From the NCBI GenBank assembly GCA_043819345.1, contig JBDREX010000009.1, forward strand, positions 39,911 to 103,910: DNA of 64,000 nt, written 5' to 3'. The notes below the pieces were generated by a model. That model made no database searches. It was not told where the DNA came from and saw only the letters and a program-made list of their open reading frames with translations. Made by a program: the position numbers and the translations under genes. The stretch comes from Candidatus Omnitrophota bacterium (GTDB taxonomy: Bacteria > Omnitrophota > Gorgyraeia > Velamenicoccales > Velamenicoccaceae). Below are positions 1 to 64,000 of the stretch, piece after piece (position 1 is the first letter of the stretch; every line of letters begins with the position of its first letter).

Positions 1-3000
1 AGGCGTTTTTACCAAAAAATAAGACGGCCCTAATATACTGATGATCATTGTCTCCATAATCCGCTGTCTGAGGCCCGTAAACCGTTGGAAAAACCGGAGC
101 AACAACCTGCATAGTTTCTGGGCGTTTCTCAAACATCCCCACTAAATCTTTCTTGTGCGCTGCATCAACATCATTGCGATCATATAAAACCGTATGTTCC
201 GGTTCAAAATCTGTCTGCAGGACAGTATTTTTAGAAAGAGATATCTCCAGATAAACGTAAGGCGCTCTGCGGCCCCCCGAAAGAGGAGAAAGGGTTTGTA
301 AAAGCTCTTTATTCTTCAAATAAGCTCGAATCAAATTTTGTGCTATGCTATGCCTATAAGCAAACAACACCCACTGCGCCCGGGAAACAGAATCATCTAT
401 GGAAGGAATCATAAAATTAAAAGCCGTCAGGTCAAAATAATGAAGTGGCACTTTTCTGAATTTTTTTAATAATCCTTCATTTAATACCGGTAGAATAGCC
501 TCAAGATATCCTGACGTGCTGTAAAGAAGTTCAAAATCTCTCACAGGTGCTAATTCGTTATGTAAAATCTCCAGACCAACAGGAATAGCTAGGGGATTAC
601 GGCGCTTCGGAATACGAATCGTATGAACTTTTAGGCCTATTTTCTCATCTTCTCTCTTACTCAACAACTCCGCCTGAGAAAGATTAAACGCCTCTAGCAA
701 TTCAAAAGCCGGCATGCCTTTAACTTTTTCAAGAAGAAACTCAACCTCTTCTTTATATCCTTTCTTGAAACTTACTTTAGCCCTCAGCAATGGTGATGCT
801 ACCACTTGATTTGCAAAAGAATCCCCGAAAAACATCATCTCCAAGGCCAGCTTATCAACCCGTCCGCGCACCTTCTCCGGAGAAAGCCTCAATAGCTCTC
901 GTGGCCCTTCCTGTATTTTTTGCCACTGTCCATTCAAAAATATTTCGGTTTCAAAACTAATCTCTATTAAAATCTGCAGTAAAAACTCCTCTAAACCCAA
1001 AAATGACATTTCCAAATACTCGCTCGCTTCCAAAGCCAAAGCCATAACCACAGATCGCATAATATCTCGCTCCGAAGCCCCTTCTTGACACATATCAGCC
1101 TCAATAACATTAATATTCCCTTCCCTGGTTACTAAAAAGGCGATGTCTCCTAAAGGCTGAGAAGAACTCTTTTGGTAGATATGATAATACCCTTTTGCTT
1201 CTTCCTTCTCGGGAATTTGTTCTTCGTCTTGCAAAACCAAATAGATAACCGAATAATCCCTTAAGTGCTTTATCAATATTTCAGGACAAAACTTAATGTT
1301 TTGTTGTTTCTGCGCCGTCTTGATACCCGCTAAAGAAACATCTTTATGTGAGGCGAGATATTGACCCACTTGACACGATAACACTAGTAAATTAGACAAA
1401 TGAACAACATCCAATTGGGAACCGCCAGCTAAAACTCCCCTCACAACAGCACTAGAATCCTGATAAAAATTAACAGCCCGCTCATATCCAAAGCCTTTTA
1501 ATACATTTTTCAGCCAATCCTGGCCCATACGTTCAAGAGCAAAATGACGATGTTCATAAAAAAGAGATGTCGTTCCCATTTTGCTTCTCGGAGTTGCCAA
1601 AAATAAAGGTACATCCTGGCAAGACTGCATCTGATGATTATGTGTTACGGTCGTATTGATTTTTTCAGAACCTCCTGATGTAAACATAATACCCAAATCA
1701 ACAAGCCTGGATTTTTTAAACTCCAAAACACATAAAGGCGTATGTGTTTTATGCGCCTGTCGTATCAACCCATAATGCTCAGAAGTAGAGATTTCATCTG
1801 AAAAGAAAGATGCCGCCCTCAAAACACCCTTCCCTAAAAAGATATCTGCCAAATCACCTAATGTTGTCGCGTGATAAGTAAAAAGAGAATGGTAGGGAAA
1901 TTGCGCACTATGCCTGAACAATTTCGAGTTACTCCAACGGTATTCCGTCTGAGTCAATCCAGGTAATCCTACCAATGAACGCATATTGACATTAGAAGAA
2001 TCCTGAACAATATTTAACAAATCATAATAATCCATCACCAATGATTGTCCGAACACGCTGCGCAAAGAAGTGCTTACGGTTTTACTTTCTTCAAAAAACC
2101 GAGCTAACCGCTCCAAATACGCAGACCTGCTCAAAACCTCCTTTAAAATAACTAACGGCTGAGATAAAGCGGCCAGCTGAGTAGCTAAAAATTCAAAGGA
2201 TGCCTCGCCGGATAAATAACCTGTAATAAAACTATTAACCAACCTGGCTTTATCAGAAAACATTAGCAAAGGCACGTCTCTGCCATAATCAATTTTCCTG
2301 CGGAAAAGACTATAGACCGCTCTATTGTTTTTTACGATATGATAACCTAGCTTTGCACATAATATTTTAACGGTCTCCTGGCTTTTTAATCCAGCATGGA
2401 CAGCTTTTTCTATGCGCCCATCATCCAGCCATGGATTATCAATCTTATAAAGAAGCATTTTAGCCTGTTCTTTAGAAAAAATTCCCTCCATAAAAAGAAG
2501 GATCACAGCAAGATTTAAAAACTTCTTCTCATTAGCTGTCATCTTTAATCCATTCTCCAGATCAAACGCCCTGACAAATATTAGCTGATCCGGAGATTTT
2601 CCATAGGGAGAATGATTCACAGCACCCACTCTCATAAAATAGTCTTCTGTTGAAATAAGATCATAAATCAAAGGATTGCCATTTGATTCTTCTTTAACTC
2701 CTCCGTCATTCTGAACCAAATTTATTTCTTTAGGATTAAATATGAGATTTCTTTCCCTCTTCAGATAGTGATTAATTTCTAAAACGATTTCCTGTTCTAA
2801 TTCCAAGCGATTGCCGTAAAAATTAGCAATCGTGTCCCAAAGAGTAAGATAAACTCCACCCAAACATTCAAGAGCTAAGGCCCTATTGTTATGGAAAAAG
2901 CTAAATAATAGCTGTCTCATGTAAGGAATACACGCCTCTGTCAAAGGCCCGACAACTTCCGTATCCCCACTGTTAAGGCGGTTTAATAAAAGGTCTACCT

Positions 3001-6000
3001 CGTCAATAGAAACCACCTCCACTACCTCCAAATTGGAAATAGTTATCGCTTCAGCACTTGGCCCCTGTTGTATCCGCCTTTTTCTGCCCAGGCTATTTCT
3101 AACCTTTCCTTGAAAAGTAATATAATAGCGCTTATCTTCAAAAATCCGCGAAAAGTATTCTTTCAATTCGCCTTTTTTGATAGCCTTCAAATCACCTACT
3201 TTTCTATTAAAATCAACAACCTGCTGATAAAGATAATTAATACGTGTAATCCGAGTAGGCTCTAATGCCTGAACCCGTTCTATGCTGGATTCAAAGTTTT
3301 CACCGCCAAAGAATGAAACAGCTTCTGAAGACAAAAAGAGATCTTTAAGCCCTCGTGCTTCAACAGTTTTATAAAGATACTGGTATCGTAATCCCAATAA
3401 ATGCATAATTTTATCTAATTGATATTCTGCCTTTCGGCAAACTTTCCCAAAGAAAACTCTTATCTCCAAGTCAAGCCCATCCTCAAGCTGATAATTCACC
3501 ACAAGTTCTTCCAAATATCCTGTCCAGCGAGGAGGAAGCCCTTGATGAATACGCTGCTCATGAAACTTTCTAAAAGCAATGATCCTACTGCCCAAAGCAA
3601 TACATAAAAAGGCCTTTAAAAGCCTTGCTTCCCTAGCTTTAAAGCCTTGTCTTTCTTTATGAGCTAAATATGTTTTCTCCCGGGCTGCCATCCACTCGGC
3701 ATCTTTCTGTCTTAATCTTTCCTGCCACTCTCTTTGCTCCTGAAAACCTTTCTTCGGCCGAAGCTCAGCGTCTCCAACAACATTCCTAATCCTGCGAATA
3801 ATCTTCTCATCTGTCCATCGCAGACAATGAACATACTCTGCAGGGTTTAATCCAGCGAATACAAAAAATTTCATTTTGCGCAAAGCGCGTTCCGGCGCCA
3901 CATCACCACGTTGTTCAGCAGGAATCCGGTCATAGGCGATACCATAATCTCGCAACTGTCTCAAGACAGAAGCCCGTTTGGCCCTTTTCCTCCGCTCAGC
4001 CTCTTGCCTTTTTTGGTCCTCCCACACTCTCTTTAGCCCCGCTTTTACACGCCCAACAACAGAAGGAATTTGCTCTTGAGAATAAGCAGCTACCCAAAGA
4101 TATTCTTTGGGGTCTAATCCCGCCCGAAAAATCAACTGCACTTTTTCTAAAACAGCTTGGGGTGAATTTTCTGCCAGAAATGGCGCATCCAAAGATGCGT
4201 AGCAAACTCCATATTCAGCCAGGCGGCTCCTTGCCTTCTCTTCTTGCTTTTGGCGTTCTATAATTTCTTGAGCCAGGCAGGGAATATTATTTTTAGCCGC
4301 AGACAAGAGACCTAAATTTTCTTTCGGCCTTAAACCAGCCTCGTGTATCAAAACAGCTTTCTCAAACACGCTGGCTAGTGTATTTTCTCTTCGGACCTTC
4401 GCCTCAAGTTGCTCATATTCAATACCCCAAGCCCTCTTTAAATCAAGCTCCGTTGGTGCAATGAGGCCCCTTTGAGACAAGTCTCTAACAAGCTCTTCTT
4501 CAGAATACTGTAATAAGGAAATGCGGTCTTTTGGATTTAAGCCATAGGAAAAAATCAAATCGGCTCTTTGTAAAACTGTATGCGGCCGGGCCTTCTCTTT
4601 TATGTATTCAGGCAATCCCTCGTAATAAATACCATGCAGTTCAACCAAATAAAACTTAGCCGACCGAATTTCAAGCCCTCTTTCTCTTGATGCCAACGAC
4701 AGCTCTGATACACTTTCCAGGCTTCGCTGTAAGTAGGAAATACAATCCGCGGGCTCCAACCCTTCTTGAGCAATAGCCTCAACCTTTTCTAAAACTTTTT
4801 CAGGCGTATTATGATCTTTGATCTCAGGAGGCAATTCATTGTAAGAAATAGAAAAACAGCCCTCTAAAATTTCAAAAGCTGTCTGCCGCTGCTTATGATT
4901 TTTTTCAATCTGAGCTTCTCTTCGGTCTTTTTTCCTTAAAAGAGACGCCTCCCTACCAGCTTTCGCCCTGATATGCTTGAGGCTACGCTTCATCCAACTT
5001 AAATAAGACAATGGATCTAGCCCCTGCCCTGAAATAATATGGGCTTTAACTAAAACACTTTCTGGCGAATTGTGCTTACGCACACCGGCCGGCAAATCCT
5101 CATAAACAATATGAAATTTTTCCGCAAGCTCCTGAAGCGCCAACTCAAGTATTTTCTGTGTTTGCATTACGTCTTCCGTCTTACGAAAAATTTCCGGCTC
5201 AATAGCATCTTTACCAAGCCTTAATAAATATAGGTGCTCTTTTGGATTCAATCCATGTGCGTAAATAATATCCGCTTTTTCCATAACAAGCGCCGCTCCA
5301 TTGGCCAATCTTAAAGACGCAGGTAAATCTGCTGAATAATTAATACCATAAGTATCCTGTAATGCCCCTAGCGCTTTCTGCTCCCTATTCGCATCTTCGT
5401 CTTGTTGACACTTAATACGCGCGGCCTCTTGCGCTATCTGTTGTTGCGTATAAGCCAGTAAATACATATATTTATCAATGTCCAGGCCAAACCCGGAAAT
5501 CACACGCAATTTAGCTAAAGCGGTTTGAGGAGAATTATCTCTCTGAAGGTATGGTGGAATATTCAGAGAATACTCTAAATCAAATTCATTCCTCAGAGAT
5601 TGCAAAGCCGTTTCCTTCTGTGTTTTTCTCTGTTTTAGGCTTTCCACTCTTTGAGAAAATTCCGTACGGCTGCAAAGAAGTAAATAAGTACATTCTCTTG
5701 GCTCTAAACCATAGGAGGCGATTTCATCAGCTTTTTGGAGTATCTTTTCAGGAATATTGCGTTTTTTAATCTTTTCATCCAAAGCCTCATAATCTATATG
5801 ATGGCGCTCTGCTAATGCGGAAATAACCGCCTCTTTCTCTTCCCTGTTTTTTTTCAGAGACTCAGACTGTTTAGCAAGCTTACCCTTGCCTAAAGCTAAT
5901 AATCCAATGTTCTCTTTAACATCAAGCCCATAGGAAGCAACAATCCCTGCTTTCTCCAGGAGTCCAATGGGAGAATTATCCCTTTTGATACCAGCCGGAA

Positions 6001-9000
6001 AACCTTCCTCGTCATAGCCAACGCCATACCGCTCTTTTAATTCCAAGACAGCCTTTTCCTGCTCTTCTCTAGAACCCCTGACAGCTGAAGAAACCCGCCC
6101 CATCTCCTGCCCAGAATCGCTAATTCTCACCTGGCTTAAATAACCCAATTCATGACCTGTTTGAGCTATTGTTTTCATTAAGCGCGAAAAAGAAATATTC
6201 CCCTTCATATAAATACCAATAAAAGCAATGATTGTCTGCGCACCAGCAGGATAACAAAGTGAAGGCATATCTATCCCACCGCAAATCTTTAACAAAAATA
6301 AATCACAAACCTCTTTATTATGTTCCTTGATAAAACATCCCAAGCGCTTCAATAATTCTTCTGTAGCCCCACTTTTCACTCCTTCTCCATCAGACATATC
6401 TGTCAATGCATAATGAAGTCTCGCCCATAACAAGGCCGCTTCTTCAAAAAGCAATAGCCCTGACAGATGTAAAATAACCACCGCGAACGACAAGAACATC
6501 CTTTCCTCATTCGTAAAAAAGACAGGTGCTTCATCCTTCTCTTCTTCTTTATTCATCAGACACTTTTCGGGATCCATGTTATAGGGTGATAATGTCCCTC
6601 CACACATCATCCGCTCAGAATAACTCTCCGCAGATACCCTAGCCAGGAAGGCATCTTCAGCCTCTTCACCTTCTAATACAATCTCCTTATAGATAGACTG
6701 CTGCTTTTTTACAGCCTGTAAAATATTACGGCGGATAGCCATATCAAGCGCTTTTTTATCTCCGGAAAATTCCTCTACTGTTTTTTTCAAAACCACATAC
6801 GCCATGCTCCAATATTGACTCACATATTCTCTGCTAAAACGCTGGTGGAGCAATCTTCTGCAGAAGGGGATATAGGCTTCAACTACACTTTGACATGCAT
6901 CCTCGCGTCCTGAATCCAGGCGATCCACTAAAATCGATAGCTCACTCTCAGGCAACTCCTGGATATTCTCAAAAACATACATCATGCCCTCTCCAAAATT
7001 CAAATCTTTTATATCCTGTTTTCTTTCTTTTATAACACGCGCAACAGAACTTTTAAGAGCACTAATCCAACCGTCAGCTTCTGCAATAGCCGACCAAAAC
7101 GCCTGCCTAAAAAACCCTTGCTCAATTTTAAACCGGCCATCAACCTCTTCATTAAATAAAGCAACCATCTGATAGACCCTGCAGAACTGTTTGGCCTCCC
7201 CTATCTCCTGTATAAGGCCATCTTGCGGAGCATCAATTCCCACAAGAAACATAAAAGCTTCCTTGCAAAAATACCAGATCAACCCATATTTTTTTATTGC
7301 TCTTCGCAAAGAATCTTCTGACACGCCTAAGTTAAGAGCCGCTGTTGCACAATTTAAAATGCCAACTCTATTAACAGCTTTGATAATACGGCTTTTTATC
7401 CTTTCCTCAATAATATGTGCATTCGCCAAAGCGATCCTCAAGAAAAACTCTCTTTCAATAGGAACAGCCCCTAATCCTTCCATAAAATCACAAAACACCT
7501 GATAAGCCACTTGTCTGCTCCCTAAAGTTTGCGCCATGAAATAGATAACACTCCTTCTATTTCTTCTGTTCACCCTCGAGTATAAAGGCAACAACGCGCA
7601 TCTTTTTATATAACCCAGGATAACCTCTTTTTTATAAATCATGAGATATAAATAATCTTTCGCTGTCAAACCCTCGGACACAATCGCCTCAGCTTTATCC
7701 AATAAGGTCGCGGGAAAGTTACGCGTTCTAATCAGGTTAGAAAAATCAGTAAAATAATTTATTCCATGCCGCTCTAAAAGCTGACGCAATGCGTCTATCT
7801 CCAACAGTAAATTAGAAACGCTAAGCACCATAAAACAAATGCAATCCTTCAAGCAAAAGCCAGCGGCAACAATAACCTCCGCTTTTTTCATGATAGAACT
7901 TGGATAATTACCCGTCTGAATCGTGGAAGGAATATCAATATAATAATCGAGATTGTATTGCTCGCATAATATCCTTACAGCTCTGGCCTCCTGTTGGACA
8001 ACACCTGCCGAATATTTCATAAAAGGAATACATCGCTCCAAAGCAACGTGTTCAAGTGCCGCAGCTTTCACCTTCGCCAATAAAGAAGAAGGCAGATTAC
8101 GACGCATAAGGAAAGCTCCAAAATGAAAGTAATAATCCAGGCCATAGGCAACCGCCATAACTTTTAAAGCTTCCAGTTCCTTTCTTAATCTGGCCACATT
8201 TAGAAACATGAGCCTTTCACATCTTTTTACATTAAACCCTGCAATAGAAATAATACGCGCTTTATTTAATATCGTTTGCGGTAAATTTTTCTTGCGAATA
8301 CCCGGCGACAAGTCTTGTTCATAATCAAAATGGTACAAACTGAATAATTCAACAAGCGCTGATCGCTGTCGATCAAATCTGGCTTCTATAGCATTCTGAC
8401 TTGCCTTCATAAAATAGATAAACCGTTTCGCACTAAAACCTCTTGAGGCGATAAAATCCGCCTTCGCTAATATATGATGCGCCAAATTAAAACTGCGGAT
8501 AGGCCCAGGAATGTCACAATAGTAGTCTATCTCATGCCTTATTCTTAAGGCGCTAAGAGCCTCCATATGCGCTTTGACTCCAGCTCCTAATGGGCTTTTT
8601 CCTTCACAGTTGGATTGTTCCATATCATATATCGCCTGCGCAAAAACCAACCCCTCCTGCGTTAAACCAGCTTTAAGGCTCTCCTGAATTGATTCGATCT
8701 TATTCACACATATCTTCCTCGCCTTCGAAGCAAAATCTCTAAGTTTTTTTTCAGGGAACAACTCTTGATGGGCAAATAAAAATGCCTCAGCAAGCTCAAA
8801 ACTTTGAAGAGCCTCAATATAGCGATAACGCAGAAACAATTCTTTCCCATAGTCCAATTCACGCCGCGCGGCCTCTAAAATAGTACACCTTTGCTCAAAA
8901 AGCTTTATCCGAATATTGCGAGCCTTTTCATAAGCAGACACTTCCTTATCTATTTCTTCAGAAAAACTATCACTATTCCTTTTACTTCTAGGATTTTCTA

Positions 9001-18000: not shown

Positions 18001-21000
18001 AAGCGCCCAAATACAACGGAACCTGATCTCTTTCAGAGACACGGCAAAATAACGCGCGATCAATACAGATCTCCTTATCTGCTATACAAAAAAGATCTTC
18101 CCATTTCTTATGCTGAGCCCTATCAAAAGGCCTGAATATCCCGTAATAAGAGTTGAGGGCTCCAATATGGCCGAAAAACTTTGATAGGCGGCGATACACA
18201 ATCACGCTGACAATAGCTGCAAGCAATATAATATTGTTCTTTATAAAAAAAGGTTTAAAGAAAAAGAAACCTGCTGTCATAGCAACTACCAAGAAAACAT
18301 AATAACCTAATACCGTCGTCAACAAACACATCATCCCTTTATCTGTCAGGCGCGCATAAACGCCGGTGTCACTCCTAAAAGTAGAAACAAAAAGTTTTTG
18401 GATTATCTGCTCATCCATATCAATGGGTGAAGACAACTTAATATCTTCTGTTGGCTGCGCTAGGATCTGCTCAATAAGACTTATAGCATACGGCATGGCT
18501 ACTGACATCTTACACCTTAAAGAGCCGTATGTTTCATGCCCGTCCAAAGGCTCATAATCCTGCGGATACGAAGGCTCAATGTCCTGAACAGGCGAAATCC
18601 GTTCAACACGCCTGTTTAACCCAAGAAAAGAAAGATCCCTCAACACTCTGAGCCGCTGAGTTTCCTTCATAACAAAAATAAGGCCGCACTCGGCATAATC
18701 CTCATTCGTGACAACTTGAGGCTTATGTTTGGCGAGAAAAGCGTTTTTATCAAGCGCCTGCCTCAAATAGTCAACATCCTGCGGCGGCTCAAACCCTCTT
18801 GAACGCACCTCAACCTTATCCGAAAAACCAAAAGCAAGCAGCTCTTTTTCAAGCTCATCTTTAGCTAATGGCGATCTTTCCTGATTATGTTTACACATCA
18901 CAAGCACAACTAACGAACTTGAAAAAACAGCTTTTTCCAAATCCTCAGGCACAAAAACAATGCCACCGGCTTTATTAATTAACTGCTTAGCCATGTTAAA
19001 TCTCCCTGTCTGGAGATATAAAATACCCGACTTCAACAAAAGATTTTCAGGAGGAAATTTTTTAAGATAAGCCTTTTCTACGACAGATGTCAAAAGTTCA
19101 ATGGCACGTTTTTCACCCCAGTTAACCCCGTGAATTTTAAAATCATTATCGTCTAGATCATAAAATTCAACCAACTCCCATAACGCGGCTTCTTCAAAAG
19201 ACTTTAGAACATCCGGCATAACATCAAAAAGCTGATCGGCCCAACCTGTAAACAATACCTTGTGCTGAAGATCATAGAGATCATACCGGCCAAATAAAAT
19301 TTTTGAAATATCTAGTGCCTGACAGTAATGCTCAATCGCGTCATGGCAAACAACCTCAAGAAAATATCTGGTCATCATAGGCACAGAAAAACTCTTCATA
19401 AGCCCATTCTGGCTTAAAAAATTATCCTTTCGGCAAAGAACAAGGCTTGTCTCATAATCAACTGTTTCAGCGTTATGCTTCATTAAACTGTGATATAAAG
19501 AATAATGCATGCGCACATCTGCCTGATAATCATAGAAAGCGGCACTACTGGCATATAACTCACCCATTCGTTGATCTGTCTGAAATATTTTATTAAAATA
19601 GAAATTTTTTCTGGCACTAAAATACAATGGAAAGAGATTGAAAAGAGGGAGAAGGAATTCTAATATATAAGGAGGGGCATGATCCTTTAGATGAATCAAG
19701 AATATCGTTAATACGTGATTGACTTTTTCACAAGCAACCTTACCTTGATATACTTGTGTAGCCGCAAAATCATTATCTCGCGATTTTTTTATAGCCAAAA
19801 CAATCTTCAACGATCCTAAACAATTCACACGAGCCCCGAAAACAGGAAATGATTTTTTAGAAAAAGGTGGAACGTCCTTGTTTTGACGGTCAGATAACGG
19901 AGAGCTACCGCCATCTTGATGCTCCAAATCCAATAAATAATTTCTCTCTCTAGCCCGCACCTCCTCCTGTTGTTGCACTTTCAGGTAGATGCTCTCAATA
20001 TACTTCTCAACCTGTTTTGGCAATAAACCAGATTCCCGAATAATATCAGACAATTCAGTCCCATACGTCTTGATAATTGCTAACTCATCCTCATGTAAAT
20101 GATCTTTAACAGACAAGAACTCCTCTAGGGTTAATATCGCTTCATTAATATAAATTTCCTCTCTGACTCTTGAGGCCTTCTTTCTGGAGACCATAATAAG
20201 CGGCTCATTAATTTTTTGTAGGTGCTTATTCACCGCAAGTAAAGCCCTTCTGAGTTTCTTGACATCCAGGGAGACCTCCTTGGCTAGAGCCTCTACACTG
20301 TTCCATTCAAAACTCTTAAGCTCCCTACCTCTAAAAACAGCCCACTGACAGAGCACAACCACTTCCCTTCTGATGGAACAGACAATTTCTTCTCTCTTTT
20401 GCTCAAGAAGCAAACAATTAACCTGATCAATATGAACAGATACAGTTCCCGCGCTAATAAGGGCCTGCAAAGCAATGTCCTTCTGACATATAATAAGCTT
20501 CTTCTGTTCTGGAGAACGCTCAATAGCCCACCTATACAACCTATAAAAACCATCATCTTCATGGACAGAAACACCTTTTTTCTTATTCCGTAGCATCTGC
20601 CTATTGACAGCAGACAAGTTCCTTCGCACAGCCTTAACGGGAATTTTTAAAACTTTCGCGATATCAACCGGAGCCCATAAACGCACGCCATTTTTAGAGC
20701 TTTCTTTAACGCCCCACCTATAGATCAAATTAAAATAATACTTTGGATCCTTTATTTTAATTTCAGAAAACCCTTCCCGCACAAGGGCTTTGTTCACTTT
20801 CGGCAGCTGAACAGAAACGGTCGTATCATTCAACTTAAGTTCTCGCGCCAAATTGATTTGTGTCCACCTCTTATAGACCTCTGTACTTTTTCTTTCTTTA
20901 GCCCATTGAAATAATTTTGCAAAAGTTTCACTCTTAGATAAAGAAATAAGGATGGGGCTGCGGCCCTCACTCAAAAGCCGATTATTAACCTTATTAAACT

Positions 21001-48000: not shown

Positions 48001-51000
48001 ACATTATTAAAAAGATACCTTCCATTATCGTGCGATAGCAAATAAACAATCCCGTTTCCGTAATACGAGAAATAGGCTCTATAAACATCTTGTCTAGACA
48101 AATTCCATACATAACCCCTTTAAGAAAAGAAGCTGCGTGAGCCAATCTCAAACGCAAAGAAGGTTGAAATTCTAAAACCTGCGCGCATGCATTAGCATGC
48201 TTAATAAGAGATGAAGACACCATGTTTTCCAAAGAAGGCAAGAGATGCATCTCCTGTGCCAAGCGCACGCTTGCCACCATCGCCAGAAAATGCCTGTCTA
48301 AATCAAATGCCTTAGACATAAGATGAGCCCCGTAAGAGGAATGAAACTCCGGAGCATCAACATTGTAATCATGACAAACAAAACAGGAAATATGTTGAAA
48401 TGGAAAGACCAGGCTTAAGAGCTGAAACTGTTTATATCTGCGCAACCACAAACCATTATCCATGCCTTTGTGATGGCGCAATAACCCATGCCGATTAATG
48501 ATTTCCTTTGAACCAATATATCTCTCTAAAACACCTTCTTCCAGAAAGCTCCACTTATCCTCCAAAACACTATCCTGAATCCGTAAGACTTCTTCAAAAT
48601 AACTCCGTTGAGCGCCATAAAAAATAGAGACGATAAGCCTCATCCTCTTTAAAACATCTCCCTCTGATACACTATCCCATTGTTTTCGCGTACCTTCAGA
48701 CAAATAATCTCTTATAACTGCATTCGCGCTATCAAAAGATGGCCACATGAAACGACAGGAAAAAGAAAATCTCTCTCTCAAGACAACCTGAAAAACTCTC
48801 ATCATCATGATATATGAAATAAACTCCCTCTTGCGGCACAAATTTTCAACCGCCGCTATGATCTTATCGTCAATAAGATCATAGCGGGATAAAATTAAAT
48901 ATATTTGCCCTATTTTTCTGTCAATATGTTCACACAAACTCTCCAAAGAAGAATACCCTTGCTTAACACAGGATTGAATCTCATGAAATCCTTTTATGTC
49001 TTTTTGCTGAAACAAACAATCCAGCTCCCAAAAAATAGAAGAATATTCCCGCATACAACTTTCTTTTATCCCCGGAACTTTCTGATAATGACGGCTCAAC
49101 TCTCTTCTCAGCTTCAAGCATGATTTCTTCAAATACAACCCTTCCTCATAACGCCTGACAAAAAACCATGCCTTATCAATTAATTCTTTAGCTCCAGAGG
49201 CTAAAATCTGTGCCTCACCCAAATTCCTTTCATTTCTCTTGCAATAATCCCGCTGAAACTTCTTCATCTCTTCTACAAGCGCAATAATCTCTTCTGGAAA
49301 AATATCAAAACTGAAAAATAAGGCATCCTGTTGTCTCTGAACACGGCTATCTCTCGCTAAACTAAAACCCATGCGTTCCATATTTATCATAGCACGGCGC
49401 AAAGGTGTAATCCGAATTGATGAAACATCACGAACAATGCTGTCTATAATAGAAAAGGCATGTTTTTTAATATAGGTAATGATTAGATCCATCTGTTTAA
49501 AGGTATCATTGATTAAAAAAGGCAACTGCGGTTCACCTTCCATAGCGCTGGAAACGGTTTTATCCAATTTGGCAATAAGATTTTCCATTGTACGCGAAAT
49601 ATCACTCCGCATGAGATCCGGACGAGCACTATATATTAAAGATTGCACAGCCTCCCAATCGCGGTAGTAACAGTTTTTTAATACTTTATCGGCATCATAG
49701 TCATCAAAGCTTTCCAATAAGCGCCATATGGATTCAAACACGCCAAAACCAAATAACCTTTCTGTTTGATGAATATAAGGAATAAGCCTAGATTGCAACT
49801 GTGCAAACGACAAAGACGCACGCAAAGCAAGGCCCTGATCACCAAATAAATCCATAACACGCTGTTGCACCAAAAACGGATTTCTTAAATACATAAACTC
49901 CCGTTTCGCATTCCTTATTAAAAAGATATACTTTAAACGACGCTGTAAGGTCGTCATATCCTCATGTAAAACAATGCGCTCAAGCCCATATAGCGAATAA
50001 ACCAACCGCACCGGAACATCTCTTTTTCTAGAAAAAATATTCAGGAACTCCTGAGAAGAAACAGTCGCGTAAGAAAAAGTTAACTGTGTTTTTTGACTAG
50101 AAAATAAACATATCTCACCCTCATTCCACAGTCGCTCCACATCATGCGGAGCTGCCGGCAAAGTTTGGAGCATCTTTAAAGACATCTCCTTTACAGCAGA
50201 CGAAGAAACACTCTCCAGCAACTCAGCAAACTCATTCTGGAGGTCATCAATAGTTTTAATCTGATTTTGCTTCACACGTTCATCAGGAAACCACTGGCCT
50301 AACCCCTCCGTAATGATCTGCTGATTTCCATCAAGCTTTATATGTTCTCTCTCTAATGGATCCCATGGTTCAAGCTTATATTCATACCGTTTTCCTAATT
50401 GAATCTTCTGCCAATTTAAAACAAAAACCTGTTTTCCTTGTGCATATGCCTGCCTGGCTGTATCAACGGTCGCGCTATAACGAGCACACTCAGCAATAAC
50501 CAATATCCTTGATAATCCACTGATAATTCTGTCACGGGCAAAATGCCTTAAAAGACAACTCTTTCTATCATAGGCAAAATCATCATATTCAGATAAAAAA
50601 CAACCATCAAATTGTAAAATCCCCTGTTCAATAAATTTGCGTTCCGGATGGCACGTATTAGAAAATGCACCCTGAGGATCAGACGAAAAACCATCCCCTA
50701 AAACAGAAACAACCCTTCCCCGTTCATCCAAAGCGCCAATCTCAGAAGCCAACTCACTGCCAAAATCATGCCCTGTGACCAATGTCCAGCTATGCATTGC
50801 AGCTGTTTGTGCCAAAGCCTGAACAACACGAAATGTAGCCAAGGTGATGCGCGTCGCACCTGAAAAGTTAACCGTATGCAAATTCCGTAAAACACCCGCG
50901 TTACCTAAATAATAAAGCTCCTGCGGCAACTGAAAATCTTTTTTCCTATACTTTTGCTCATGCCTGGAAATCATCCTTTTAATCTCCTTGCACTTAAAGA

Positions 51001-54000
51001 AGCGCATGGTATCCAGATAATATTGATCAACATAATCCATCGTTTCCGCGACAGAAGGAAATTCTCTCAGTTTAATCTTTCCCATATTAATAGGTGAAGA
51101 CGCCTTGTCTAGCAGGGCTTTAAACGCAGCCTGCAAGCGAGGAATTGTTTCAATGATGGGCTGACGCGCTGTAAAAGCCGGAAACCACTCGGCCAAACCT
51201 TCGCGGACAATCTGAAGGCCACCGTCTTGCTTAATACTCTCTTTCTGTGTCGGGCTATAAATTTCAATACGACCTCCTATCTCCATTCCTAGGCGAACCC
51301 TCTCCCAATTCAAAGCAAACACTTTCTTGCCTTGCATATAAGCCTGGCGTACCGTATCAACTGTTGCGCTATTCTCAGCAGCTTCTACAATCATCAATAC
51401 TTTTGAAAAACCGCTCAACATTCTGTCACGATCAAGATGCCTTATAATCCGCTCATCTTTTGATAGCGCATCCTGCTTATACTCTGAAACAAAACAACCA
51501 CCAAATTGAAGTATCAATTCTTCAAAAAATCCCCGATCAGGAAGCAAGATTCTTGGCAAGACATGCTTATTTCGTATCTTCAGCGCATCACCCAATACAG
51601 CAATAATGCGCCCCTTCTGACTCAACGCCCCTAGCTCTGAAGCCAATTCACTACCCCAAACATGCCCTGTCACCAAGGTCCAATCATACGCGGCGGCCGC
51701 TTGAGCTAGAGCATAAATAATACGTGTTCCGGAACAAGACAAATTTGTCGTCCCTGAAAAATTTATAGTCTTAACAAAAGATAAAGCATTAGAATTACCG
51801 TAATAATAGATTTTTTCAGGTAACTGCACATCCTTAATTTCATAGGGCCGCCCGGAACGAAATTTTAACCGTTCATACCCTTTTTCTTCATATTCTTTGA
51901 TCAAAGACGGAAATTTTTCTTGCACATAACTGGCAACATCACGCAAATAACTAAAATTCCGTAAATTCATCCTACCCTTAGATACCGAAGAAGAAGCACC
52001 AGAAACACCGGGAGAAAATCTCACATGGCGAAAATCAGGCCCAAGACCGAGGAAAAATTCATTAAGTTTTTTAGCAGATGCCTTCAGATCAATCTTACCC
52101 TCTTCTATTAATTGCTTAATCATCTTATGAGATGTAGTTGGCTTCCACCACTGGTGGTTAAGAAAATCCAACGACTGATTCTTTTTTAAAGCTACAACAA
52201 TACGTATTTTCCAGTATTTAATATAATCAAAATACTCATTCAAGACGCGGCGTAAAAAATCATAATTATACTCCTGATTATACTGAAGTAAGCCCAAATC
52301 ATTGAGCACAACAATCCTTTCAGGTATCAATTCTAACTTTAACGATGCCTCTGTATAATACCGCTTGTAACCAAAAAGATTTTCTTCTCTTAACCAACCG
52401 GATGTGAGTTGGTTAAGCTTTTCCCAGGCATCAGGCGGCATATTATCCTTATAAAATACTAGGTCAATCAGTTCGCCTCGCATCTCAACATTCTCATGCT
52501 GATTCACCCTGCCTATCTGCTTACCCATACGTTTTAACACCGGTTGAGGAATACCCTGCTGTATAAAAAATGCGTATCCGTAAACCTGCTCATACTCCAA
52601 ATATCCTAAATCATTCAATTCTGCTATCTTATCAACATCAACAGCCAACCATAAAAAACCGCTGCCATAAATTCGCCCATAACCATAGGGATGTGTTTTT
52701 CCAGACCAAAAAGAAGTTTCCTCAACCAACCCTTTCCAAGCTTCAAGCGGCATATCCTGCTTATAAAAACGCAGGTCTAATAAAGCACGATGCGCACGAA
52801 CTTCTTCATACAGTTTTTTTACGGATTCCTGAATCGGCGGCTCCGGCCTTATTGAAACAAGTGCTTCTGTCTTCCCTCTAACAGGCTTCCATTGATCCTT
52901 TAAAAACAAATAAACATATATTTCCTGGTTTACCTCTTTAGGTAAACAAACTATATTCCCTGGCCTAATCTGTGGGATACCTTTTCTGTTCAAATGGATT
53001 TGAGGATTAACCGTTAAAATTTCTCTCCACCGTGATCCAAGATCATAGGAATGATCTTTCGCTGTTCTTGTATTTTGAAAAATATATTTTGACAGATTCC
53101 ATAAAGTATCTCCTGCCTCAATACGACAGGTAACCACTTGTTTATTGCTAGGTTCATAGGCATAACGCGACATGTCTGTGAAAGGGACAGCGGCTGAAAC
53201 AGAAGCAGGCAGATAAAGTAAAACAAAAAGAAGGATTGTAATAAAGAAAAACGCGATTCTCAAGCGCCCATTACAATTGTTTTGTTTTAAAACAAGAGAG
53301 CCTGATATGCTTGATGATACATCCTTATCATCGTTATTTTCAGATGAAAACATGGCCCTAGCCAGATGAGAAAATCCAACCATACAAAAAGCATGTAATA
53401 CAGCAGCCATCATGACAAAATAATTTCTATCAAGAACCCCATATAATAAAATACCAAAACTCATAAAATAATACGTCAGCGAATCTTCATACATATTTCT
53501 AAAAAAGCAGCTACACAAAGAGTTAAAACTCTTTGTGATAACATAGCTATAAATAAGAAAAACCGCTATTATAATTAGCCTATGTGTAGAGGATCCTTGT
53601 TTATAGATATTCTCAAAAATTTGAAAAGGATTATTTATAAAGTTATCTATTGTGCATCCAATCCCAAAACCGATAAAAGCAGATGTAAAATAACATGCCT
53701 CCTGGAAAACTATGTTAAAAAGAAAAGTAAGCTTTTTAAAAAGAGGCGAGCTCGCGCTCAATTCTTTCTGGCCTAATAGCTCTTTTGATATTTGTTCAAT
53801 CGCCTTAAAAATATCGCGTTCACGAACAAGAATACTTGCAAAGCGCCACAAATCACTTGAACCTGAATCAATACCACTTGCTTCTAAGGCAATACCGGCC
53901 AAATAATACCCAAAAACATAGGGCCCTTGAGCCACAAAAGTTTTGTCCCTATCAAAATATAATTTTTCCCCGTCCAATCCTTCTCCGATAAACAGATTTA

Positions 54001-57000: not shown

Positions 57001-60000
57001 CTCTATAATTCCCCATCATGTCTTTAATATCCTTGAGAACAGCTTTGAGATTAGGATTTTTCGGATCAACATTATAAAGAGTCAAAAGATATAGTATTCT
57101 GGCTCTCACGTCATGCTCAAAAGCATCCGTTACACAACCTGCTTCAACCATATCCAACACCTGCACTTCTTCTTCTCTAATAACTTCTGCAACAACTGGC
57201 AGTTCCCAAGCATAATACTCATCCCTTAAACTAACCAGAACTGAAACCAACCTCTCTAAAAATTTTGCAATATCGGCCAAATATTTTTCAAAATTTTCTT
57301 GCGATTGCTCAAGTTTTTTTTGCCTTAAAACACATACCCAACTAGCAATTCTTTCAGGCAACCCATACTTATAACAAAGAGTGTCATAAACAACGCCTCG
57401 CATAATAATAGGAGCGGCCTGTCGTTTTAGATTAGAAATAGACACATCAAAAGCGTCCGGAGAAACATCCCAGGACAAAACCTTAAACATATCCACAAGT
57501 TTCTCTATCCAACGCTTCCAATAATAAAGCTGTGCCCTTAAATGAAACCAGTCTTGCCCTAAAATATCGGCTCGGCCCAACAATACGTCATCGAGATTTT
57601 TCAAATACTGCAGCTCGGCCTTCGCCACATCCAGATGATTGCGAAGATCCACCGTATCTAAATGGGTTTGAGATACCAAGCAATACAAAAGCTCGCCTAT
57701 TTTCTTATCAAGTGAAAGCTCAGAACTAAGAAAACCCGCCAAACGCTTCTGGCTCAAAACAAGAGTTTGCGAAAGTTTCAACAAACGTTCAATCTCTAAG
57801 CGGTATTGCGATGGATTAAGAAGAATTTTTTCTTCAAGCGACTGAATGGTGTTAGATAACATATCAACCCATCTCTCTAGCGCCACAATCTCATCACGAA
57901 TCTCATCCGGGCTTAACGGACTTGAAACCGACATAATTTCTTCTAAAATAAAAAGATAAGGATAGCTAAGATTCTTTGAATAAATTCTTACAACTGAAGC
58001 ATTGGTCTTGGATAAGTTTTGATGAATTGCTTTGATTGTTTTCGTGTTTGCTATATCCAACCACCCGCCCGCGATATTAACATAGCAATGTTCTAAATCT
58101 AAATGCAGTTTACACCCTTGCCCAAAAATTCTGACTTCTGAAAAAACCTCTTGTTTTTGATACAGACGAATTAAATCAATCATGGTAATAAAACCGCCCA
58201 CGGATTGAACTGTTTGCGCGATCTTCTCTTTTGTTGCTTGCTTCTTTAGAGGCAACCCACTGTTATAAGCATTAGCAACGCCTTCTACAGCACTGTTCCA
58301 CACATATAATGTTGCCATAGCGCGTGAATATATGCTTTGCTCTACTTCCAACGTATCATCTTGATAGAGCGCAACGCCAATTAAATGCGGTTTATTCAAC
58401 ACAACGCTCTTATGTAGGGCTAAGTATTGAGAATTGCCTTTCAGATCATCTACCGCCAAAGGCGAAGAAAAACGACAAGACACTCTATCCAAAAACTTGC
58501 GCTGCAGCAAAAATTCAGTCGCCCCCACCACACAAGGCTTGCCCTGCACGGCACAACTCAAATCGGATAACCTGCCACGGTAGGTCCGAATGATTTTAGG
58601 GGCGACTGTATTACTAAGATTATTATTTTCAGCGAAAGCGGCTGGAATAAAGAAAGCGGATAAAGCACTGGATGTCTTATAAAAAATACTCGTTATTCCA
58701 TCATACCCACCCGCTCTCGGCACTAATTTACCACCAAAACCAGCTCTTGTTTCAAGTTCTTCCTGTGTCATGTATCCCAGATGACGCGTTAAAGCACTGG
58801 ATGCAAGTGTATTCTCTGCATCCGAAAGGTAATATTGCTGCAGGCGACTTGGCTTTTTAGCTTCATTCGGAATAGGCTTTAAGCCGATTTTCAGAAAAAA
58901 TAATATATTGATGCGTAATGTGTTTAGCTTATCTTTTAAAAACTGATAATCCTTTAGCGGACAGATAACATAAGGATTAAGCCAAATAAGAGGCATAATC
59001 ACAGCCTTGCAATAAGGCTTGTAAAGATAAACCCTCAAATTGCCATCTTTATCTTCGGCAATAGATTCAACGCGCACAAGCTCTTTTTCAATGATTTTCT
59101 TCTTGTTTTTATTATGTTTCTCAAAGAAATCGATGTCCCCCTGATAGAAACGAAGAATCTCATTACCCGGATAATGCCTGACGATAAACTCAGCTAGGCC
59201 TATCATAAACCATAACTCTATAAAACTAAAAATCATGCTAAGCCCAATATAACCGGCAGAGAGCCAAGCTAGAACCTCTAAGCCATTTTCAGCCAACACA
59301 CAAACAGCACAAGTCAAATATAACAATTTAAATGTCATAACCACAAAGCTTATGAGCTGATTCACGGAAAGAGTGCAACTGATAGCCTTAGGCAAATTGT
59401 TATTGGCGATGGTGACCTGTTTAAGATGTCGCTTACGAAATCCCTTAAAAGAAATGGGCGAAGAAAAATGATCTTTTGTGTGGTGCAATTGATAATAACT
59501 CTCACCGGCATACAAAGCAGCTTTAACCCGGTCTTTAAGTGCCCTCATTGCTTCCAATCGATTTGTTTTATTGCGTTTATTCATCATTCTTCTAAACACC
59601 TTCCAAGACGCCTCAAATGCGACATCACAAGAAATAAGATCTAAATCGTCAAGCGATAGCTCAAGAACACGATCAATATTTTTAAAAATACGAAGCCCAA
59701 AAACAATAGCTAATGACTCTACAAATTCAGGATAACGGGAAATTTCATAAGCACCTGTCAAAGCCACTCTCAAAGACATCTCTTCATTGCTAGTGATAAT
59801 TTTCACAAATTCCTTCATGATAAAACCATGTCTGGAAGAATAAAGCACCTTGGGAACATCTCTAATAACAAAGGTTCTTAAAGAAGAATTCTCCGAGCTG
59901 TCACCTTGCGGATAGCCCCAAGAAAAAACAAACTGTTTCGTCTGTTGTAGGGCATAAGGCAATTGTTCTCTTAATATCTCTATATAATGGACACTTAAAC

Positions 60001-63000
60001 CATAAAACTTAAAAGTAGAAAACTCAAACAACCTGTTACCCGCCGCAACCTCGGCTTCCCACAAGCTATTCATTCTGCCTGCAAGATCAGAAGAAAAATC
60101 CTTGTTTTCACAATCTGGATAAACGATTGCATCAGTAAATGCCTTAGGCCGTCTAGTTTTATCAGGAATAACTCTTTCAACAGACCTCTCATCATTGCCG
60201 ACTAGTTTATCCGTCAGAGCTCTGTCCATCACAGATTTATCTCTTGTGGCTAACTCTGTTTTGCGTACCTCTTTAAAGCGTTGATTACAAGAACGCATCT
60301 GGACCAATTCTTGTTTTTCACAGCTCTTATCAACTATTACCATTAACGCCTTCCAGGAATCTTCAAATCTAGAATCACAAACAACCTTTTGGAAACCTCT
60401 GCATGACAAGATCAATACTTGATTCACCTCATAAATAATATCCTTACCAAAAATGGCCACTAAAGAATTTAGATATTCAAAATAAGCCCCCATCTTATGA
60501 GCATACGCTAAACCTACTCTTAGCCCCATACGATTATCACCAGTAATAACGCGCGCGAATTCCTGTATCAGAAAAACATGCTTCGTTTTATCATGCTGCT
60601 TATCTATTTCTGCTGCCATAAAGATTCTCACAGGTGCTTTCTCCAGACAAAATTCACTTTTTAAAAAAGACTTTTTATCTGACCCGCGATAAGCAAAAAC
60701 AAACCGCGAATCATCCTGCAAAACAAAAGGAAGGCGCTCTCTTGGAAGCTCCATATATTCTATTGTGAGCTCAGGCATAGACGGCTCTACATAAACAACA
60801 GCCTGATTCCCATCTGAAATCTCATGCCTCCATAAAATTTCAACTTCTATAGGCTCCATATCCAGCAACGAAAGATCACCTACGAAGGGTTTAAGAGAAG
60901 AAGAAACATACGTCACGCCTTGTTCAACCACCTCATCAATTTTAATAACTTCAAATGATGTCTTTTCTAAAACATTCTCATGAGAAATCACAACTCGCTT
61001 AATGTCCAAAACTTGCTCACGCTCATTTAGGGCCGCAATCGGAATAGAAGAGCTTTTCAAAAGACTTTCTAATGTTGACAAAACTAGAGAAATAGTTTTC
61101 AACAAAGCCAAAACTCTATCCGGATCACAAATCTTAAGATTTGTGATAAAATCCACCAAATACATCGCCTGAGGTGCCAAGCCAATCTTCTTTTCAAATG
61201 GATGCCCCGTTGTAAAGATTCGGCCCAAAACTTGCAAAGCGCAATTATGGCTCAAATACCAACCTCTTCCCACCAGCTTATAGACAAAAGTAGCCTGTTG
61301 ACAAACTCTATCCCAATCCCAGCCCTGCTCATTTGTTGATTGCAAAATCCCCGCCCCATATTTACGCAATATGCCTATATTCCTTATTAGCTTAGTCCTG
61401 AGAGACTCATCAATATCAATAACACCATGTTCCCTACCCGTATCTACCATTAGTCTTTCATCTACATCTAATAATTGTTGAACCAATATAAATAGTTCCC
61501 CCATCAGAAAAGGTTCTTCGATTATTGGCACATTTAAAGTTTCCATATCAGAAGCTTTACCCAAAACAATAATCTTCTGCTCCGCGTTAACAGCTCTCAC
61601 CTGCGCGATCAAACTTCCCGCTTCTTCCTTGCTCAAACGATTCAAGGAAATCATCACTAAGTCAGGCCTCAATCTTGAATACTCACTCATAGCCAAACCC
61701 TTATCAACAGCTACATACTCTTTTAAAACATTCTGAAATTGCACACCTAAAAGCAGCTCAACAATTTCGGCGACAGATGAAAGATCAACCATAAGTATTC
61801 TGATCTCGCGCTTTACGGCAGGCTTCTCTTCTTTAGCATGTAGAGCGAGATAACGATCTAATTCACTCATACCACGGCTAGACTTTGATTCCTGCTTTTT
61901 AATAAAATCAGCCAAGACATTTTCAAAAGACCTCTCTTCTGTAATATCTACACACTGAGACTCCATCAAACGCTCAACCTGTCCTTTAAAGCCAACGGAT
62001 ATCTTTTCAAGTAATAAAACATCACCTGTCGCGCCTCTCGCCCATGCCTGATAAGCCTTTTGTTGAAATTGCTCATCAAAGTCATCAAGATACCGATCCA
62101 TATAAATATTTCCAAAAACAAGATACATCTTCCAAGAAATCGCTAATTTTTCATCTAAAGCCACAGCAGCATCAACACACTCAACCGCCTCTATGAGATT
62201 TTCTGCTGCATAATACGCCAGAGCCAATTCGGCGTAAATACCGGCATTTCGCGGATCGGAAGCAAGAACTTCCCGTAAAGACCGAATAGCTTCTTCGGCC
62301 CCACCTTCAGCGGCCACCGCAATCGATTTTTCATCCTGAAACTGTGCTTCCATGTTTTTCGAAATCGGACTACATGCCCCATCTTCAGTTTTCGCAAGAC
62401 CTAAAGTAACGCGTATATAAAACATGTTATTCTTAAAACAATCGCTTTGATCAACAACACGCACTACCCTGCTCAATACGGCCTCATCCGCAATCACTTT
62501 AGCACGCCAACGATAATCCTGAGAAAACTCTTCAATCAATATCCTGCCACTTTGCGCCAATAAAGAGCCAAGATTACGATATAGCCTCATGCGCGCCGAA
62601 ACAGCTTTATCACTAAATAAATCCGTTTCCGGCTCAAGATTTGTCATATCTTCTAGAATACCCGGCTGCGTACGGCCCGCTTCATGCAAAACTTTTCTTA
62701 AATAAACAAAATCAAAGGGCCCGTAATGATCACTCAGACGCTCATATGTCATATCGCCTTTATCTATGACAACACCCTCAATACCTGCCAATCCTGCAAA
62801 TTCTTTCAAAACCATAAGAATAAAATCATTCGTATCCAGAAAAACTAAGTAACCACTCTGTGGTTTTAAAGTGAGCCATACAATGCCTTCCATACCTACG
62901 CCCGGCATAAAAACACGACCAGCCATCATTTCTTCCTCAACCCCATCACAAAAAGGAATAAAAGCCTCCGGCTGATGATTCTGCATAAGCGGCACATAAT

Positions 63001-64000: not shown

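Follow-up and report, generated by a model that had tools for sequence, protein, structure and literature searches.

A 64-kb window of Omnitrophota DNA read as one open frame, with a recurring SS[PSA][LIVM] junction motif between apparent protein-sized units: a possible bacterial polyprotein

The 64,000-nucleotide stretch of DNA analysed here, which we call the window (contig JBDREX010000009.1 of a Candidatus Omnitrophota bacterium), is occupied from end to end by a single open reading frame (ORF) on the minus strand. The predicted product carries, at 46 places, a short peptide motif, SS[PSA][LIVM], and several of the pieces lying between two copies of this motif have the size and the limits of complete, free-standing proteins. 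Giant prokaryotic ORFs have by now been catalogued by the thousands, and the issue that remains open is whether they act as one chain or as cut products. The giant gene itself would not surprise a specialist in 2026; the recurring junction is the new element. As an overall account we consider it probable that the window belongs to a giant ORF under selection, made of fused units that meet at motif-bearing junctions and may be processed there, although the parts of this account are not equally secure and are graded separately below.

The giant open reading frame

When the reverse complement was translated from nucleotide (nt) 64000 down to nt 2, no TAA, TAG or TGA was met in 21,333 codons, which bears out the claim of a preliminary description of this DNA that one open frame spans the whole window. 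The ORF (2..64000, minus strand) is open at both ends, and residues are numbered so that amino acid (aa) i lies at nt 64000-3(i-1) downwards; all the features given below are on this same strand. From the base composition of the coding strand about 1,477 stops would be expected in this frame, and the log10 of the probability of finding none by chance lies between -459 and -949, according to the stop rate that is chosen. The remaining five frames contain 1,031-2,077 stops each, the longest run free of stops being 153 codons, and the longest start-to-stop ORF outside the giant frame has 105 aa, exactly as had been described. The GC content of the window is 39.9%, in agreement with the A+T content of about 60% estimated earlier by eye.

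The coding signal is as continuous as the frame. A codon log-odds score, self-trained on the giant frame, preferred it over the two shifted frames in 212 out of 212 segments of 200 aa, the margin never falling below 0.48 bits per codon. The GC1, GC2 and GC3 values are level across the window, the GC content per 2 kb stays between 0.37 and 0.42 throughout, and the strand skew is strong and constant. On the coding strand G (24.6%) exceeds C (15.3%), a GC skew of about +0.23, and T exceeds A; this asymmetry goes beyond the usual coding bias and the gene may be placed on the leading strand.

No tandem DNA repeats were found in the 64-kb window by TRF, the longest DNA repeat measures 75 nt with 81% identity, and a self-BLAST of the product returned only old internal duplications of 22-56% identity, so the sequence is indeed largely non-repetitive, as had been stated. 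The amino-acid composition of the product is ordinary. The window holds no tRNA that could be found and no Rfam family at gathering score.

Of all 191,997 possible single-base substitutions in the giant frame, 9,872 (5.1%) would create a stop, and about 33 nonsense changes are predicted for each 1% of neutral divergence. Because such a fraction of the possible substitutions makes stops and the frame is still intact, purifying selection must have acted on it. The stop count, the coding signal and this calculation together support the earlier view of a maintained coding sequence that is an internal piece of a gene longer than 64 kb, and we are highly confident that the window lies wholly inside a genuine giant protein-coding gene, of which it shows 64 kb and neither end.

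The junction motif and the units between its copies

The preliminary description had not noted any internal organisation of the product. A blind count of four-residue words was headed by SSPL and SSPI, with ten copies of each where fewer than 0.5 would be expected. The wider pattern SS[PS][LIVM] occurs 37 times, compared with 2.7 +/- 1.7 times in 200 shuffles of the product (maximum 8). SSA[LIVM] is enriched as well, and the complete pattern SS[PSA][LIVM] has 46 sites, against about 5 expected, which corresponds to 2.16 per 1,000 aa. Among 152 ordinary proteins the same pattern is 11-fold rarer (0.19 per 1,000 aa) and is not enriched over shuffles, and in the giant product the enrichment vanishes once the first Ser is dropped from the pattern. 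The motif is preceded at position -1 by V, F, S, A or L, and there is an enrichment of acidic residues from -5 to -3 and of basic ones from +4 to +11. Both TCN and AGY codons are used for the Ser residues of the motif, and therefore the constraint acts on the peptide and not on the DNA.

The 46 sites begin at aa 57, 217, 983, 1033, 1513, 1734, 1777, 1845, 2026, 2613, 2652, 3099, 3417, 3562, 4003, 4301, 4600, 4817, 5262, 6151, 7874, 7895, 8127, 8371, 9193, 9243, 9671, 10362, 10869, 11048, 11475, 12597, 13485, 13923, 13936, 14238, 14699, 15027, 15190, 16122, 16272, 17339, 17610, 18033, 19304 and 20849, an example being the SSSV junction at 51983..51994 (aa 4003-4006). A role of the motif as a DNA-level relic or as a start-codon signal was rejected, given the mixed codons and the many fourth codons that cannot start translation. 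An excess of the pattern in the +2 frame (35 observed, 26 +/- 5 expected) was found to be compositional.

These sites delimit 45 complete inter-motif pieces, with a median of 328 aa, whose sizes resemble those of an ordinary proteome. The ends of internal paralogous alignments tend to fall at the motif, 8 out of 28 lying within 10 aa of a copy compared with 1.4 at random (p<0.001). A hydrophobic segment follows within 50 aa after nine of the motifs, compared with 3.3 for random positions (p=0.006), and two of the segments that come after a motif are signal-peptide-like with AXA-like ends; hydrophobic segments of a signal-peptide-like or an anchor-like type open some of the units. In one of them the SSPL junction at 34979..34990 (aa 9671-9674) runs directly into the signal-peptide-like RRYIALALAIFLFVVPARFVGA, followed by EGP. 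The other belongs to a unit at 51995..53317 (aa 3562-4002), which, as we read its sequence, begins with SSSI and the signal-peptide-like RLRIAFFFITILLFVLLYLPASVSA, followed by AVP, and continues into a possible LysM-like stretch. This stretch (GDTLWNLS ... NPQI ... PGNIVCLP; 52940-53125, aa 3626-3687), located after the signal-peptide-like segment, matches Pfam LysM at a sub-threshold E=0.2, and a unit-by-unit Pfam scan at relaxed thresholds gave sub-threshold noise only, this match included.

A coincidence between motif and protein limits concerns two DprA/SLOG-like units placed one after the other. The first (51101..51994, aa 4003-4300; 298 aa) extends from SSSV to SSPI and matches Pfam DNA_processg_A (9.6e-39) and TIGR00732; the second (50204..51100, aa 4301-4599; 299 aa) extends from SSPI to SSSA/SSAV and was recognized by Pfam, NCBIfam and self-BLAST. 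Their domains are adjacent (aa 4058-4231 and 4354-4529; E 1e-39), and the period of 298-299 aa coincides with copies of the motif at aa 4003, 4301 and 4599-4600. An alignment of 93 free-standing DprA-like proteins (200-330 aa) to this region placed their N-termini at median positions aa 4010 and 4307 and their C-termini at aa 4293 and 4597.

Similarly, a low-molecular-weight protein tyrosine phosphatase (LMW-PTP) unit of 163 aa lies between SSSL and SSPI (18434..18922, aa 15027-15189; Pfam LMWPc 1.9e-6), its domain starting at aa 15032 and its P-loop CKHNQERS (CX5RS) being intact. Residue 7 of the 161-aa LMW-PTP structure 2cwd from the PDB aligns with aa 15032, so that residue 1 would fall at aa 15026, next to the motif at aa 15027; the following motif is at aa 15190. 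Chains of this family in the PDB, taken at their untagged lengths, have 157-164 aa.

The last example is a unit with homology to Ste24-type M48 integral-membrane zinc proteases, which occupies the 427 aa between the motifs at aa 11048 and 11475, from SSPL to SSSV (29579..30859, aa 11048-11474). It matches Pfam Peptidase_M48 (6.7e-19) and M48_N (1.1e-10) over aa 11078-11448 and ZMPSTE24 in the PDB (3e-13), and its HEIGH motif at aa 11313 is intact. A complete Ste24 protein is about the size of this unit.

Judged by length and termini at the sequence level, four or more units thus match complete free-standing proteins, namely the two DprA/SLOG-like units, the LMW-PTP and the Ste24-type M48 protease. 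That the product consists of some 45 protein-sized units fused head to tail, with a selected junction motif between them, is in our opinion very likely.

Possible processing of the product and alternative explanations

Because the frame has no stops and Shine-Dalgarno-like sequences with an in-frame ATG are not enriched in it (7 of 478), the whole frame would be translated into a single polypeptide. We hypothesize that the hydrophobic segments would carry this chain into the membrane and that cuts at or next to the junction motif would afterwards yield separate proteins, which would make the chain a bacterial polyprotein. Ste24-type metalloproteases cleave N-terminal to aliphatic residues, whereas subtilisin- and HtrA-type serine proteases cleave after such residues, their classic substrates ending in Ala-Ala-Pro-Leu or Ala-Ala-Pro-Phe. 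Two kinds of cutter could accordingly be considered. The embedded M48 protease would fit the aliphatic fourth residue of the motif, and it could be that the cutting enzyme is this Ste24-type protease carried in the chain itself. A subtilisin or HtrA-type enzyme would instead cut after the fourth residue and would leave units ending in S-x-aliphatic, a tail that resembles a class I PDZ ligand.

Several points weigh against one part or another of the overall account. Cleavage at the motif is something that we infer from the sequence, and we place its likelihood somewhat below even. About 5 of the 46 motif matches are expected by chance, the unit containing the GlpX-like domain measures 888 aa and several other units exceed 1,000 aa, which is unlike single free-standing proteins. 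Met is not enriched after the junctions (p=0.13), and the idea of a vestigial Met at these places was rejected for the same reason. The transmembrane (TM) content is only weakly above the shuffled expectation in a crude hydropathy scan. Moreover, domain scans of the window found no S8 or C39 peptidase, and none of the SecA_DEAD, HEAT and glycosyltransferase domains that are typical of the published Archaeovorins; the SecA domains could lie in the parts of the gene beyond the window. It is thus tentatively that we suggest a true bacterial polyprotein, in which dozens of once-independent genes would have been fused and their products cut at SS[PSA][LIVM] into cytoplasmic, membrane and secreted proteins.

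A different reading of the same units is that they stay together as one uncleaved, membrane-tethered mega-protein, a scaffold for adhesion or for enzymes, in which the motif would be an inter-unit hinge or a helix-cap linker. The literature on the Omnitrophota giant proteins usually reads them in this way, and the TPR arrays and the long helical repeat arrays of this product would be suitable for it. Ser-Pro is a common helix N-cap and, the M48 protease aside, the window holds no dedicated processing protease. However, a generic linker has no need of a specific tetrapeptide at some 40 sites, written with mixed Ser codons, and the motif is rare in ordinary proteins. The signal-peptide-like segments with AXA-like ends that the units retain are best explained if the units act separately. 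We regard the uncleaved scaffold as a plausible explanation that falls short of being probable.

Expression of the units one by one, through mRNA processing or internal initiation, would turn the long frame into a by-product of gene packing without stops. A hint of an element at the level of RNA or DNA comes from three 27-nt palindromes found near junctions, but this hairpin exists in three copies only and a covariance model adds none. The count of Shine-Dalgarno-like sequences with an in-frame ATG given above is below that of the other frames, the fourth codon of the motif is often one that does not start translation (CTT, TTA, GTA, GTT) and, since there are no stops, ribosomes coming from upstream would read through. 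Within nt 1-20000, the part that was scanned, sites resembling promoters or terminators occur at close to the background level. Separate expression is therefore unlikely in our view.

The palindrome is imperfect (TCGAACCTACCGTGGCAGGTTATTCGA) and its three copies, all in frame, encode the peptide RTYRGRL[F/S]D. They are located at 58563..58589 (aa 1805, as RTYRGRLSD), 45609-45635 (aa 6123) and 44094-44120 (aa 6628), and each of them precedes a junction motif by 28-40 aa. All three use the same codons, some of which are rare (given the peptide, P is about 1e-8), and their flanks are unrelated. In the stem predicted for one copy, a compensatory change turns A-U into G-C, at the price of a Ser in place of Phe. 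Neither a search allowing mismatches nor the covariance model found further copies, and none was found in viral contigs. The palindrome may represent an element of the RNA or of the DNA, or it may result from local gene conversion.

Another short sequence, GGGGCGRCYG, was observed four times, at 58516-58525, 56053-56062, 45562-45571 and 44050-44059 (aa 1826, 2647, 6144 and 6648), always in frame (as G-A-[A/T]) and 5-19 aa before an SS[PS][LC] junction. Two of the copies lie inside an identical CVVGATEF. Together with the palindrome it suggests a junction cassette of about 45 aa shared by a subset of the units.

An artefact of assembly or sequence, such as a chimeric join, a collapsed region or a decayed frame, would be in keeping with the lack of an independent copy, an exact 50-mer (nt 1-50) being absent from the genome, metagenome and viral contig collections searched. 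Nevertheless no artefact of this kind can delete the roughly 1,000-1,500 stops expected, the window is uniform in composition and codon usage, it lacks long repeats of the kind that lead to misassembly and the catalytic motifs are intact, so we consider it very improbable. Finally, a classical giant repeat adhesin or a megasynthase for non-ribosomal peptides or polyketides (NRPS/PKS), although very large bacterial genes are most often of these two kinds, is refuted for the window and keeps almost no probability, as tandem copies of one module type do not dominate it: there are no tandem DNA repeats, the repeat array covers only about 8% of the length with a repeat that is new, and Pfam and NCBIfam detect no adhesin, Ig-like, RTX, condensation, adenylation, KS, AT or carrier domains. 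Modules of these types may yet occur where the gene continues beyond the window.

Further content of the product and comparison with known systems

Eight domain types were recognized in the 21 kaa (thousand amino acids) of the product, of which Pfam and NCBIfam annotate little. Besides those already described, these include TPR repeats at 62153..62311 (aa 564-616; Pfam TPR_19, E=5e-5) and a TPR array at 40571..40951 (aa 7684-7810; Pfam TPR_1/TPR_2 about 1e-14, consensus TPR in the PDB 1e-68), a Fic-like domain at 31979..32176 (aa 10609-10674; Pfam Fic 3e-8) and a partial domain similar to GlpX-type fructose-bisphosphatase at 25439..25765 (aa 12746-12854; Pfam FBPase_glpX 7e-12, covering profile positions 67-174 of 307). 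For GT9 there was only a weak hint in the Pfam and NCBIfam scans, and neither collection gave a match in the window to the SecA preprotein-binding domain. A sequence search of the PDB was concordant, returning DprA, ShosA, the consensus TPR and ZMPSTE24/Ste24. The product had been credited with many intact catalytic signatures; this holds for the HEIGH of the M48 protease and the P-loop of the LMW-PTP, whereas the Fic motif is degenerate (HPFIDTNERIGR), and the claim was overstated.

The same can be said of the many membrane-spanning clusters that had been reported. A simple hydropathy scan found 20 segments above a Kyte-Doolittle (KD) value of 2.0, compared with 9.6 +/- 3.2 in shuffled sequences, but no excess at KD 1.6, and the only hydrophobic cluster backed by a family match is the 7-segment Ste24-like region. 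A second HExxH sequence, HEAFH, occurs at 54179-54193 (aa 3270-3274), inside a 318-aa unit (aa 3099-3416) with three strong hydrophobic segments. No family match was obtained for this unit, which could be another membrane metalloprotease.

The DprA-like region also served as a query for relatives. An exhaustive HMMER search with aa 3700-4899 against 1.84 billion representative proteins gave 3,323 matches, of which the best 150 were all on the DprA-like domains and none was of giant length. The best one (P0001) is an ordinary multi-domain protein of 1,055 aa, with 47% identity over 272 aa. By eye, P0001 joins its DprA-like domain to a radical-SAM-like domain, behind a signal peptide. For the approximately 600 aa flanking the DprA-like domains in the query there was no homologue among these best 150 of the 3,323 matches, and judged on these flanks the ORF appears as a sequence orphan with respect to the 1.84 billion representatives. 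Searches for relatives with aa 1-5000 in genomes and aa 10001-15000 in metagenomes gave degenerate-pattern matches only and no tblastn relatives. Word-index searches with aa 1-5000, with the helical repeat alignment (A1) and with a concatenation of domains of 1,710 aa found nothing, and are weak searches, since P0001 was also missed by them.

PADLOC matched the DprA-like units to its ShosA model (7e-40, on par with Pfam DprA) and to PsyrA, and labelled the Fic domain as SoFic-like. The ShosA, PsyrA and SoFic labels are taken as domain-level similarity and do not amount to evidence for a defence system. To judge from its sequence, the DprA-like domain may be a SLOG module that binds nucleotides, and not a DprA of DNA uptake.

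The last 3,000 aa or so of the product contain a new helical repeat of 56 aa (consensus ALxxLxxxxGIxYxxxLPxxIxxxNxPxxxLxKAxxIxxxGLxPK), which amounts to about 8% of the length. An iterated HMM placed its 15 copies in two arrays, one with five copies of the 56-aa core at 7625..8560 (aa 18481-18792; alignment A1) and the other with ten at 3803..6052 (aa 19317-20066). An AF2 model of three repeat units, in which the other copies were supplied as the alignment, is all helical with a pLDDT of 92.7. No Pfam, PDB-sequence or large-database match was found for the repeat, and a fold search gave none in BFVD. Four mTERF-family entries were its best structural neighbours, not significantly (E 0.65, TM 0.24). 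While mTERF-type proteins head the list of structural matches, they differ in having a unit of about 30 aa, where the present repeat has 56 aa plus a linker.

Each array is then followed by one of two paralogous modules of about 370 aa, X at 6074..7177 (aa 18942-19309) and X' at 2057..3232 (aa 20257-20648), which were aligned after self-BLAST and share 27% identity (alignment A2). The AF2 model of module X is poor (pLDDT 45), and a PDB profile search with it found nothing. The stretches ELSILVDRLDSGREDACQSVVEAYIPFCRRLL and LLLNRLNSGDTEVVGPLTEACIPYMRQLL of these modules resemble sigma-70 region 2 by eye, with no Pfam or PDB support.

Giant ORFs are known above all from the Omnitrophota. In Velamenicoccus archaeovorus a protein of 39,678 aa with 42 predicted TM helices has been described, and most Velamenicoccia genomes carry ORFs above 20 kb, with few annotated domains and poor conservation. 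West-Roberts et al. (2023) report 46 ORFs above 90 kb, reaching 85,804 aa, mostly from Omnitrophota and with many TM helices; the preliminary description had cited this literature accurately. The preprint of Nielsen & Lui (2026) counts, across its samples, 3,650 predicted proteins with a length of 10 kaa or more (maximum 147,155 aa) and gives a catalogue of domain architectures for 916 proteins. It defines a class of 'multi-enzyme metabolic cluster', with TM segments in about 2% of residues and 80% of the clusters being singletons at 30% identity. ORFs of at least 10 kaa are also found in other PVC phyla, Actinobacteriota, Myxococcota and others. With a visible length of at least 21,333 aa the present ORF passes the limit for 'large' (at least 10,000 aa), the category 'giant' (at least 30,000 aa) not being demonstrable from the window.

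The architecture of the ORF puts it alongside the giant 'multi-enzyme' ORFs, for which Omnitrophota are the main source. It shares with them a length of tens of kb, a non-repetitive sequence that is poorly annotated and poorly conserved, varied enzyme-type domains together with TPRs, hydrophobic segments at about one per 500-1,000 aa and a fructose-bisphosphatase-type domain. It differs from them in that the segment in the window is without SecA_DEAD, HEAT, GT5/GT1, methyltransferase and NUDIX domains and carries instead the two DprA/SLOG-like units, the Ste24-type M48 protease, the LMW-PTP and the Fic-like domain, and in that our searches gave no relative at the sequence level. Further marks of that class are divergent SecA_DEAD or SecA preprotein-binding domains in most though not all members, a C39 or S8 peptidase and a signal peptide at the N-terminus, and often T2SS/T4P genes on the flanks; the N-terminus of the present product is located beyond nt 64000, and no flanking genes fall inside the window.

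It has been suspected that the products of the Omnitrophota giant ORFs are cleaved after translation, and West-Roberts et al. (2023) note that the cleavage points are unknown, which blocks a unit-wise analysis. By text search and in selected sections of this paper and of Nielsen & Lui (2026) we found neither a junction motif nor a layout in which units equal whole proteins. The motif makes the question of one mega-protein or many products directly testable by proteomics. If the product is a true polyprotein, the motif would show in concrete terms, and for the first time, where a giant protein of a prokaryote is cut, and giant genes of this kind would stand in for operons instead of encoding single mega-proteins. 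It should be interesting to evaluate whether the motif, or an analogue, is enriched in the published giant ORFs, as their dark matter could then be split for structure prediction and their topology be read again unit by unit; gene fusion plus proteolysis would in that case be a genome-organising strategy in reduced, host-dependent bacteria. Independently of this, the ORF adds a new and confidently modelled family of helical repeats.

Giant repeat adhesins, for example the 36,805-aa protein of Chlorobium chlorochromatii and the RCC1-type giants of Oscillospiraceae, for which an association with an episymbiotic or predatory lifestyle has been proposed, are similar to the present product in their extreme length. 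They differ in being dominated by one repeated domain type, whereas here we find a mosaic without tandem DNA repeats.

The polyproteins of picornaviruses, flaviviruses, potyviruses and nidoviruses can also be compared with this ORF. They differ from it in size (7-30 kb against at least 64 kb), in their chymotrypsin- or papain-like proteases, where the candidate here is a Ste24-type metalloprotease, and in that cleavage is here only inferred; in addition, the content of the present ORF is of bacterial type, with no viral hallmark genes. In their layout, however, the two are alike, both consisting of a long ORF of complete units with a short motif at the junctions, a protease embedded in the chain and membrane anchors between the soluble units.

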